Positions 3,401-6,400 of a DNA stretch of 52,541 nucleotides are shown one piece after another (positions within the stretch are counted from its first letter, which is position 1; each line of letters begins with the position of its first letter). The DNA is from a virus. Its lineage: Duplodnaviria; Heunggongvirae; Uroviricota; Caudoviricetes. Made by a program: the position numbers. The stretch lies in the IMG/VR virus record IMGVR_UViG_2531839449_000043, one strand, 5' to 3'.

Positions 3401-6400
3401 AACGTTCGCTGACGCCATGTAATAACGCCCGTTGTAAAGAATTGCTGTGCCGGGTTTAACGTCCTCGCGAGAAACTAATGCGGTTCCGTAGTGAGGTTTG
3501 AGCATGACAAATCCTCCGGTTAATTAATCCAGATATTTAATTTAATCCCCGATATGTGGTCGGGGATGGGGTTAATTAAAGATTTACGTTGAAACCAAAG
3601 CGGGAAGACTTTTCTGATGTACGGGAAATATCCAGCAATTTACGGCGCATTTCTTCCGTCAGATGCTTGAAGGCGTTAAATTCGGCGACAGCTGCATCGA
3701 CGTTATAGCCGTTACGACGTAATTCATTAAATATGCGCATTGCAGGGCTTGGCATGTCGAATAAGACGGAGGTATCAAGCTGCAATGTATTTCTATCAAC
3801 ATAGTTCATCGTGGCATAGGGGTGATGCTCTGAAAACCACGATAAAGGGAAATTGATATTCATCGCAGGATAAGACAGGGCCAGTTGTTTCTGTTCCCAT
3901 AGTTGTTTTTCCATGCGATCGAATTCAGCAATGTAGGCTTCCTTGAATGCAGCTGCTTTTTTGCCGGTGAAGCCCATCACCAGAAAAACGAATCCGTTTT
4001 TGGTGATTTGGTACATTGGGCGTTGTTCGCCTTTGGCGTCGGTGTAGGTAACGTCCGCAAAATTGCGGGCGTTAAATTCCGTAGAACAATCCATCAATCG
4101 GATTTTTTTTAAAACGTCGTCGTGCCGCTTGTCAAAAAATTCAGCAATAGCAATAGACGTTGTGACAACGCGACCATTGGTAATGGTGATTTCAGGTTGA
4201 GAAAGGGCAGGGATAGTAGCCATAATGGCAGCCTCCTTGATTGGTGATTGAGAACCACCGCAGGAGGTCCTAAGCTCGCTGGCGGTGGACTGTACAGGGT
4301 TAGGACTACTGGCAATCAAGGGAACCAGCCCGACCGAAGTCGGCCCCATACAGCCCACCATTGATAAGATGTGCGTGTATATCGATACAAAAAAAGACGC
4401 TGGCGCGTCTGTATCGCCTCGATTGTCAGCGGGGTCCTAATCCCGACACCCGTTTTATAAGGTGTTCGCCAAATATAGCCCCCGACATCACACGCAGTCA
4501 ATACCGTCCTTTCTCAGAAACGCTTTGGCGGTGCCGCCTGCACCCCAAAACATTCCCTGTATTGGTCAGCGCCAACTTCCTGCCAGTGTTGCCCGTTCTC
4601 ACGCCGTTCTCGCTCTCGCGCGGGGATACTCTCTCATCGACCGGATCGCACCCGATGATACAGCACGTTTACGTGTAGGGGTCTAAACAGGTCATTGACG
4701 CTGTAAAGCTCCAGGTTGTTAAAGAGCATTTTGCGGCGGGTTAAGTCGCGCCGTACGACTGATTTATGTAGCCCTGTGTAAGGGCGCGATGTTTCTGGCT
4801 TGGGTAAAATATAATAAGTGCAACTGATCATAGTCAATAGCGAGACTAATAATCTGGTTTAATTTTAATCTATGTGGTTGATTTTTAGATTAATTTATTT
4901 ATGTAAAAAATATAAGCGAGGATAATGCAGGTGGTGAGTTATGGAGGATGCGCAAAGAAAAACCGGCGCTGAGGCCGGTTACTCTGTGTGAGATTTGGCG
5001 TGAGGGAAAAGCCCCCGGATAACACCAAGAAAAGCAGCGAACAGATTCAGAGTTGAAGCAGCGGTCACCGCAATGAGCACTTCATCTGAAAATATTTCTT
5101 TCCCCATGGCGCGGCCTGTGGCAGACAACAACAAAACAGTAGCCCACCAGTAAAGCCCATACTTGGCAACTTTATAGGCTTTTTCTGCAAATTTTTCTCT
5201 TAATTCCCTGTTAGATTTTGCATCTGCTGCGCGCTGGGCGTTTAAATTATCTCCATCTGATGAAGATTCTGTCGTTGGTGGCGTATCTTCAAGGCTTGAT
5301 ATCTCTGTGCCTGGAAATTCTGCTCCGTTCGGGATTGTGATTTTTTCAAGTTCAGACATCAATGAATGTGGTTTGCCATATCAGTATGAAGAATTGGGCC
5401 ACCATCAGGTTGACCTTTACTCCATGCCGCGTTTGGTGCATGGGTCATGTTAGAAAGCTCGGTTCCGCTGTAGCTGCCGTATACCTCAACAATTTTGTCG
5501 ATCAGCCTCCCGGTTTCTGTGTCACCATTCTGAATTGTCGGTGTGATTCGTTTCCATTCTCCATCTGAATCAATGATGATGCTGATCATTTCCTGTATTT
5601 CATTGCTCCCATATTTCTTTAACATGTGATACAGGTGCGGTATTACAGGCCCGTAAGGCCACCGCGCAAACAGATCGTCGAATAATGGCTTTCCGTTGAA
5701 TAGTTTCAGATGCCACGACTGAGTATAGAACAACAATTTTTGTAGCTTCATCGGAGTTAAATCTTTGATCTCTCCCCGCTTAGCCTTGTCAATAAAGGCG
5801 TTAGCTACGGCAGCAGCTGAATATGCCATGCTCTACTCCGCATTTTGCGAAATTAAATGTATCACCGGATAGAATACAACAAAAAGCAAATTAGAAAAAC
5901 TGATAGAGAGGGGCGGAGGAAAAAGTTAGAGGTGAACAGCAGTCACGAGTCAAAGAAAACCCGGCACAGAGGCCGAGCTAGATCTTAAAGTATTTATCTG
6001 GTCCTGCACTCATTCAGTGGAGTAGGGGCCAAGAAATCGTACTCCGTTGAAGTGAATAAGATGAGAAGGTGCATCAGCCACCCATACCTCTGTTTCCCAT
6101 GCGATTTCACCAAGATATCGTCCCATGATGGAGCGATTTGGAAAAGCGGTCACATAGACAAGTCCGGCTGTTGATCCGGCAAACAGCCTGGCAAGCTCAG
6201 CATGCCGCTTCCCATCAACCGGTCCATGACTGGTGACAGACTCAACCAGTAGCAGCCAGTTTTTCGCAGTAAAATGTAGCACCACATCTGGCATTTTACC
6301 GTGTGAATCCACATCAACACCTAGCCCGGCCAGCAGTGGAGCGTCGAAGTAGCCCCACTTTTCGCCAGTGTCGCCAGCATAGACCAGCACGCTACCCGGA

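Follow-up and report, generated by a model that had tools for sequence, protein, structure and literature searches.

A predicted PanA-PanT toxin-antitoxin cassette of class T3 in a Shiga toxin 2a-converting prophage

The panA-panT gene pair and its boundaries

We analysed a 52,541-nucleotide stretch of viral DNA (IMG/VR record IMGVR_UViG_2531839449_000043; hereafter the window), which represents a lambdoid Shiga toxin 2a (Stx2a) prophage of non-O157 Shiga toxin-producing Escherichia coli (STEC). Two adjoining genes on its minus strand, panA and panT, have the architecture of a Panacea antitoxin gene followed by the gene for a small membrane toxin. The genes and the signals that accompany them are listed below.

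5359..5829, minus strand: panA, encoding a stand-alone Panacea (DUF4065) protein of 156 amino acids, the predicted antitoxin
4979..5359, minus strand: panT, encoding a small membrane protein of 126 amino acids from the ATG of the RefSeq call, the predicted toxin (cluster T3)
5836..5839, minus strand: Shine-Dalgarno sequence GGAG, 6 nt 5' of the panA ATG, read from the sequence
5856..5864, minus strand: weak candidate for an extended -10 element, TGATACATT, 35 nt 5' of the panA ATG, from a pattern search
4953..4980, minus strand: intrinsic-terminator-like hairpin (stem 4980..4961) and T-run, overlapping the last two bases of the panT TAA (4981..4979)
5958..5979, minus strand: terminator-like hairpin (8 pairs, 5 of them G-C) followed by the T-run TTCTTT, 3' of a BsuBI/PstI restriction gene

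The two genes meet at the sequence CAT-TGATG, in which one base is common to the TGA stop codon of panA and the ATG start codon of panT. This single shared base takes the place of the ATGA coupling that had been described in an earlier note on this DNA. The same note gave the downstream protein 127 residues, a length that is reached if translation starts at an in-frame TTG at position 5362, one codon before the RefSeq ATG. Its view that the pair carries its own Shine-Dalgarno sequence is confirmed by the GGAG 5' of panA, and homologous loci have AGGAGG or GGAGG at the equivalent position. A terminator overlapping the panT stop codon was likewise found as described. At the other end, the hairpin at 5958..5979 marks the upstream boundary of the cassette, and the homology block that E. 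coli JNEC-KY176 shares with the window reaches window position 5965. Given two terminators that bracket the pair, between a cI-type repressor gene upstream and an isrK/C4-Rha antirepressor module downstream, the proposed placement of the pair in an 'early-left operon' is doubtful.

Profile searches bear out the assignment of the upstream gene as DUF4065/SocA-like. PanA matches Pfam family PF13274 (SocA_Panacea) with an expect value (E) of 4.5e-22 and a score of 79.5 bits (cut-off 25.7), covering model positions 1-112 of 113. RefSeq labels PanA (WP_000331648.1) a 'Panacea domain-containing protein' and PanT (WP_001292087) a 'hypothetical protein'. No family in Pfam or NCBIfam was matched by PanT, which does match phrog_33656.

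The RefSeq phage record NC_049917 labels panA a 'SocA family protein', and PanA also matches the NCBIfam model SocA_antitoxin (NF047745) with an E of 8.9e-25. Both are in keeping with an arrangement like the type VI system SocA/SocB of Caulobacter, whose antitoxin carries a DUF4065/Panacea domain as well, and in which PanA would be a ClpXP adaptor and would bring the toxin to this protease for degradation. However, the NCBIfam score of 87.4 bits is far under the equivalog cut-off of 190 bits, and therefore we regard PanA as a Panacea-domain protein and exclude a SocA equivalog. The partner also differs, because PanT is a predicted membrane hairpin without a recognised family and not an inhibitor of the replication clamp of the SocB type. 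Furthermore, Kurata et al. 2022 (PMC8832971) found PanA proteins in complex with the toxins they accompany, which suggests direct neutralisation rather than delivery for degradation. We consider a SocAB-like mechanism very improbable for this pair.

Cluster membership, pairing and mobility

Panacea antitoxins and their partner toxins have been catalogued previously (Kurata et al. 2022, PMC8832971). Dataset S1 of that study lists, in cluster T3 and in antitoxin-then-toxin order, pairs from Phaseolibacter flectens (gap -4), Tatumella morbirosei (+8), Pseudomonas simiae (-8) and Massilia namucuonensis (-4). Genomic loci were found in the present study by scanning one genome per species with a PanT alignment, and the loci recovered from these four organisms (L005, L009, L016 and L027, in the same order) have gaps identical to the Dataset S1 entries. 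Window PanT matches the four loci in tblastn with E values of 1e-18 to 1e-28. Because it is homologous to four T3-listed pairs whose organism, gene order and gap all agree, window PanT belongs to T3. Judged by homology, the window pair is a member of PanAT class T3, and thus of a system class that has already been described and whose antitoxin is already labelled in RefSeq. The architecture of a Panacea antitoxin with a small membrane toxin, as first proposed for this locus, is supported by these listings.

Only one T3 toxin has been assayed, that of E. coli STEC O31. It is toxic, its PanA neutralises it, and it causes membrane depolarisation and SYTOX Green uptake (PMC8832971). In the STEC O31 pair, as in the window, the gene for a stand-alone Panacea protein precedes that for a small protein whose N-terminus is charged and whose predicted membrane helices lie at the C-terminal end. 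The STEC O31 toxin also falls within the same FlaGs toxin cluster as the homologues of window PanT, a comparison made by cluster listing and not by pairwise sequence. The two pairs differ in their proteins (WP_000287252/WP_000019185 in STEC O31 versus WP_000331648/WP_001292087 in the window), in their spacing (a 22-nt gap versus a 1-nt overlap) and in their setting, because the STEC O31 pair is flagged 'NotPhage' whereas the window copy resides in an Stx2a prophage. The accession of STEC O31 PanT was absent from the supplements of Kurata et al. that hold text beyond Dataset S1, and it was not seen among the cluster members. Peptides from the published control primers were absent from the 380 proteins examined. 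Two candidates for this toxin were rejected: an exact match to the toxin primer in metagenome contigs, which occurred once and was an unrelated chance match, and the nearest other relative in E. coli (66% identity), which is a different pair located on an integrative conjugative element.

The association between the two genes extends well outside the window. In each of the 31 genomic loci that encode a PanT homologue, the gene immediately upstream and in the same orientation is panA, and panA lies directly upstream in 59 of the 60 viral loci with a PanT homologue, the lone exception being a panT remnant of 24 residues. The genomic loci come from Gamma- and Betaproteobacteria (Enterobacterales, Pseudomonas, Halomonadaceae, Oxalobacteraceae, Cupriavidus and Luteibacter), and their panA-panT gaps range from -17 to +25 nt. 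An exhaustive profile search placed the size of the PanT family at 684 clusters at 50% identity (E<=1e-3). The pairing of PanA with PanT is far beyond chance and near-obligate.

PanA does occur alone. Strains RM13745, RM13752 and AH19B041 match only the panA part of the query (L036 4001-4480), and in E. coli RM13745 annotation confirms an orphan PanA on the integrative conjugative element that carries the pair in E. coli C5, its PanT gene having been lost. No full-length PanT lacking PanA was seen among the genomic and viral loci. Orphan PanA without orphan PanT is the asymmetry expected of an antitoxin and its toxin.

Several settings for the intact pair were observed. In E. coli JNEC-KY176 the pair is present at 95% identity in a different prophage, beside a HicB gene in place of the restriction-modification genes that adjoin it in the window, and in E. 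coli C5 a 66%-identical pair is flanked by TIGR03747 and RAQPRD family genes within an integrative conjugative element (L035 5001-5938). Because it is found in a different prophage, in an integrative conjugative element, and across Gamma- and Betaproteobacteria, panA-panT moves as a unit. Divergence of PanA across the loci correlated with that of the PanT termini at Spearman 0.27 (N-terminus) and 0.51 (C-terminus), so that PanA did not follow the N-terminus of PanT more closely than the C-terminus. These figures involve a noisy N-terminal alignment and give no signal specific to a complex.

Protein models and a proposed mechanism

The AlphaFold2 model of PanA is of very high confidence (predicted local distance difference test, pLDDT, 95.9; predicted template modelling score 0.91). 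Its seven helices are packed into a compact domain that also has short beta hairpins, which agrees with the alpha1-alpha7/beta1-beta2 description of the Panacea fold (Ernits 2023, PMC10440598). A sequence search of the PDB gave no match for PanA or PanT, and a fold search of solved structures with the PanA model returned nothing significant (best E 0.14). Two residues, Y56 (beside beta2) and H120 (at the end of alpha5), are essential in the PanA of Bartonella choladocola (Ernits 2023, PMC10440598). In the window PanA model, Y59 precedes the strand formed by residues 60-62 and H130 ends the helix formed by residues 122-129. Aligned PanA sequences conserve H130 at 90% or more, and all of them have Y, F or H at position 59. 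By their placement in the model, rather than by alignment, Y59 and H130 may correspond to Bartonella Y56 and H120.

The regions of PanT are as follows.

5219..5359, minus strand: acidic N-terminal region, residues 1-47, net charge -8, disordered over residues 1-33 in the model
5276..5290, minus strand: motif E24-D-T-P-P28, within the disordered acidic N-terminus
5108..5161, minus strand: first hydrophobic helix of the model, residues 67-84, marginal by hydropathy
5009..5086, minus strand: second hydrophobic helix, residues 92-117, carrying NLFAAFLGVIRGLFP

PanT is modelled by AlphaFold2 as a helical hairpin composed of helix 35-84 and helix 92-117 (pLDDT 61), with a basic amphipathic stretch (residues 48-66, net +4) ahead of the first hydrophobic helix. 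Two C-terminal transmembrane helices had been proposed for this protein. The second is clearly membrane-spanning, with a Kyte-Doolittle value of 1.96 over 19 residues within positions 94-114, whereas the first is short and only moderately hydrophobic (GLYWWATVLLLSA, residues 68-80, 1.38 over 13 residues). An alignment of 29 PanT relatives has a variable N-terminus and a strongly conserved C-terminal portion of 75 residues. Its sharpest motif is NLFAAFLGVIRGLFP of the second helix, and the family alignment shows no variation at L69 and W72. Within the N-terminus, an ED-x-PP motif, usually preceded by Ser, is present in 51 of 192 family members versus 0 of 192 shuffled sequences. We suggest the motif as a candidate site at which PanA or a host factor could dock.

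A precedent for how such a toxin could be restrained is offered by the PanT_D11:PanA pair of Bartonella choladocola (apis), which belongs to cluster T12. In that pair neutralisation is direct, and proceeds via the unstructured N-terminus of the toxin and a short helix that precedes the membrane segment (Ernits 2023, PMC10440598). Window PanT has the same layout of an unstructured N-terminus and a pre-membrane helix, although the likeness is one of layout and not of sequence, and the FlaGs analysis did not merge T12 with T3.

We favour the view, with a probability of about 0.72, that the locus is a type II PanA-PanT cassette with a toxin of class T3, carried as an accessory pair by an Stx2a-converting lambdoid prophage and acting as follows. 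PanT would enter the inner membrane as a helical hairpin with both termini inside (N-in/C-in), leaving its acidic disordered N-terminus and basic juxta-membrane helix on the cytoplasmic side. Free PanT is predicted to oligomerise via its highly conserved second helix, such that the membrane is depolarised or permeabilised. PanA, as a stand-alone cytoplasmic Panacea domain, would bind the cytoplasmic N-terminal region of PanT and thereby keep the toxin inactive. The one-base overlap between stop and start codons might couple translation of the two genes, so that the antitoxin precedes the toxin. The most likely role of the cassette, which occupies a swap-prone slot beside a cI-type repressor gene, would be abortive-infection or superinfection defence, or that of a prophage addiction module.

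A number of observations weigh against this interpretation. The 128 bp 5' of panA have a GC content of 39.8% versus 50.8% across the window, and so the AT-rich character that had been claimed for a promoter-like upstream region holds. However, no site passed a sigma-70 consensus scan of 5830..5957, which leaves only the weak extended -10 candidate and no convincing panA promoter. The first PanT helix is marginal and confidence in the PanT model is low. Neither PanA nor PanT matched any entry in a PADLOC-DB 2.0 search at E<=0.1, whereas the adjoining restriction-modification genes gave strong matches. Precedents from the catalogue are mixed (PMC8832971): the clade of the window pair is labelled 'notest' in Dataset S1, among 25 candidate PanTs there were 8 without toxicity in E. 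coli and 5 for which rescue failed, and an E. coli phage pair of another cluster (T1) is recorded as 'not Toxic'. Lastly, STEC O31 PanT is probably a distant T3 relative of window PanT, because its Dataset S1 row sits among PanAs of unrelated taxa.

Prophage setting, LexA boxes and repressor genes

A region of 1,151 bp around the pair is 100% identical in Escherichia phage Lyz12581Vzw and about 20 Stx2a-converting phages. The cassette is present in 23 phage records and, among 5,426 complete genomes of E. coli, in 15 (O145:H28, O111, O103:H2 and others). The order of genes on the minus strand is cI-type LexA-family repressor, Eco57I-type methylase, BsuBI/PstI endonuclease, panA, panT, Rha-type regulator, gam, recT and exo. 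Further features of this region are given below.

6010..8429, minus strand: BsuBI/PstI-type restriction endonuclease and methylase genes, between cI and panA and co-oriented with cI
4390..4465, minus strand: isrK Hfq-binding small RNA (Rfam, 61.7 bits), directly upstream of the Rha/Ash gene
4278..4365, minus strand: C4 antisense RNA (Rfam, 78.9 bits), directly upstream of the Rha/Ash gene
4410..4395, minus strand: terminator of the isrK/C4 region
4808..4837 and 4472..4501, minus strand: two promoter-like sites with the same TTGACT-18-TATATT arrangement, in the 560 bp of non-coding DNA that separate panT from Rha

The isrK/C4 region looks like an antirepressor module of the P1 c4-icd-ant or Gifsy-1 isrK-anrP type. 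The long call of the Rha open reading frame (to 4361) overlaps the C4 RNA. A 10-bp inverted repeat, TTTGACATCC...GGATGTCAAA (8440..8530), lies within the 95 bp that separate the stop codon of cI from the start of the methylase gene. No gene for an N-type antiterminator is annotated in the phage, and the left operator was not located. For the best 13-mer common to 4780..4960 and the cI-cro intergenic region, 63 of 300 shuffled sequences do equally well, and we therefore make no operator claim for the cassette relative to pL/oL.

In sibling lambdoid prophages the slot between cI and the antirepressor carries HicA/HicB, or a Clp-fold serine protease together with HicAB, and these siblings keep 92-195 bp of the panT 3' end along with its terminator. 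Such remnants were recorded at L038 4001-4195, L039 4001-4092 and L099 5001-5072, equivalent to window 4953..5044 (92 bp). The presence of HicAB in the panAT slot next to a panT remnant identifies the slot as a swap site for toxin-antitoxin cassettes, and implies that the PanAT cassette was replaced in the siblings at a recombination hot spot.

Lambdoid phages carry genes for exclusion functions that are expressed in the lysogen, such as rexAB and sieB of lambda, just downstream of cI. RexA and RexB form a two-gene unit that is co-oriented with cI and consists of a cytoplasmic protein followed by a membrane protein that acts by membrane depolarisation, with RexA activating RexB. A parallel arrangement of cI, panA and panT, all co-oriented and with 170-300 nt between cI and panA, is present in about 12 enterobacterial prophage loci (among them L009, L042, L044, L045, L049, L058, L061 and L066), where a cytoplasmic protein again precedes a membrane protein. 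However, there is no sequence relationship to RexA/RexB (no Pfam or PADLOC match), and PanA is expected to inhibit rather than to activate its partner. Moreover, although the window copy retains its place downstream of cI, the restriction-modification pair and a terminator intervene between cI and panA.

This position can be read in another way, namely that the locus is no toxin-antitoxin system at all. PanT would then be a membrane protein that does the cell no harm, such as an exclusion factor against the entry of DNA from incoming phages, with PanA as its cytoplasmic partner or sensor. In addition to the site just downstream of cI, the roughly one-third of PanT candidates that were non-toxic in E. 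coli when assayed by Kurata et al. (2022) is consistent with such a role, as is the proposal that Panacea is mainly a sensor (Ernits 2023, PMC10440598). Yet cluster T3 includes a validated pore-forming toxin. In addition, the near-obligate order of A then T, the overlap or very short gap, and the finding of orphan PanA but never of orphan PanT are what a toxin-antitoxin pair predicts. We therefore think an exclusion factor of this kind improbable.

Another aspect of the family concerns the sequences upstream of panA, where we searched within 250 nt for LexA boxes defined either strictly (CTGT-N8-ACAG) or in relaxed form (CTG-N10-CAG). A strict box is present in 15 of 33 genomic loci versus about 0.13 expected by chance, and the remaining 258 kb contain 5 strict boxes. 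Among the viral loci, about 27-29 of 59 have a strict box and about 48 of 59 a relaxed one, and 29 of the 40 strict boxes in 520 kb lie within the 14.7 kb upstream of panA. The boxes span Gamma- and Betaproteobacteria and their sequences vary between lineages, with that of Serratia sp. Ag1, CTGTATAAATATACAG, as one example. The box can be assigned to panA in at least 7 loci, because the gene upstream of panA there runs in the same direction.

The window copy is different. No strict box is present in 3000..10500 and no CTG-N10-CAG in 5830..5990, and its closest relatives (L002, L003, L040, L041, L046 and L048) also have no LexA box. The loci that have a strict box, and those of one repressor arrangement, are as follows.

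Loci L004, L007, L008, L010, L013-L015, L018, L020, L021, L027, L029-L031, L033 and many of L042-L098: strict LexA box, 30-175 nt upstream of panA
Loci L013-L023 and L070-L098 (Pseudomonas fluorescens group): divergent gene for a 256-aa repressor next to mutS, with the pair between mutS and the repressor

A cI/PrtR-type S24 repressor gene adjoins the pair in 50 of 90 loci, and that of the Pseudomonas fluorescens group may belong to a tailocin cluster. The main texts of Kurata et al. 2022 (PMC8832971) and Ernits 2023 (PMC10440598) make no mention of LexA or the SOS (DNA damage) response, and a literature search linking DUF4065 to LexA found no paper that makes the link.

Together, the LexA boxes and the adjoining repressors raise the alternative that the module is linked with DNA damage and prophage induction, and not with the lysogenic state. 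Across the family as a whole, LexA would repress the operon and the SOS response would induce it, and PanT, gated by PanA, would come into play upon induction of the prophage or of a neighbouring tailocin, for example through collapse of the membrane potential, host shut-down or lysis timing. TisB/IstR-1 and other E. coli modules are controlled by LexA. Most homologous loci, with the window copy as an exception, resemble TisB/IstR-1 in placing a small, presumably membrane-depolarising toxin under a LexA box. They differ from this type I system, which has an RNA antitoxin and much smaller peptides, in that PanA is a protein antitoxin encoded upstream in the same operon. However, the window copy and its closest relatives have no box, and SOS control would fit an ordinary toxin-antitoxin pair equally well. 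A role linked to SOS induction is a live alternative for the family and is less well supported for the window copy, for which we judge it unlikely.

A bolder proposal, which we put forward tentatively and consider doubtful, is that the T3 PanAT clade is an SOS-wired partner of the prophage immunity switch, whose depolarising effector is released upon prophage or tailocin induction. The copy in the Stx2a phage, having lost its LexA box, would on this view affect when Stx-phage induction takes place or how it ends, and through this the release of toxin, or else would exclude competing phages, instead of serving as a generic addiction module.

Returning to the type II cassette that we favour, its carriage by Stx2a-converting prophages of clinically important non-O157 STEC (O145, O111, O103) gives the pair a wider relevance. 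If PanT is an active membrane toxin, the stability of the Stx prophage, the resistance of the lysogen to other phages, and the physiology of the cell during induction, when Shiga toxin is made, could all depend on it. For the family as a whole, the association with SOS control and with prophage repressors is the new point and the part worth following up, because LexA boxes and cI-type repressor genes beside this PanAT clade provide a lead on the triggers of Panacea-type systems.

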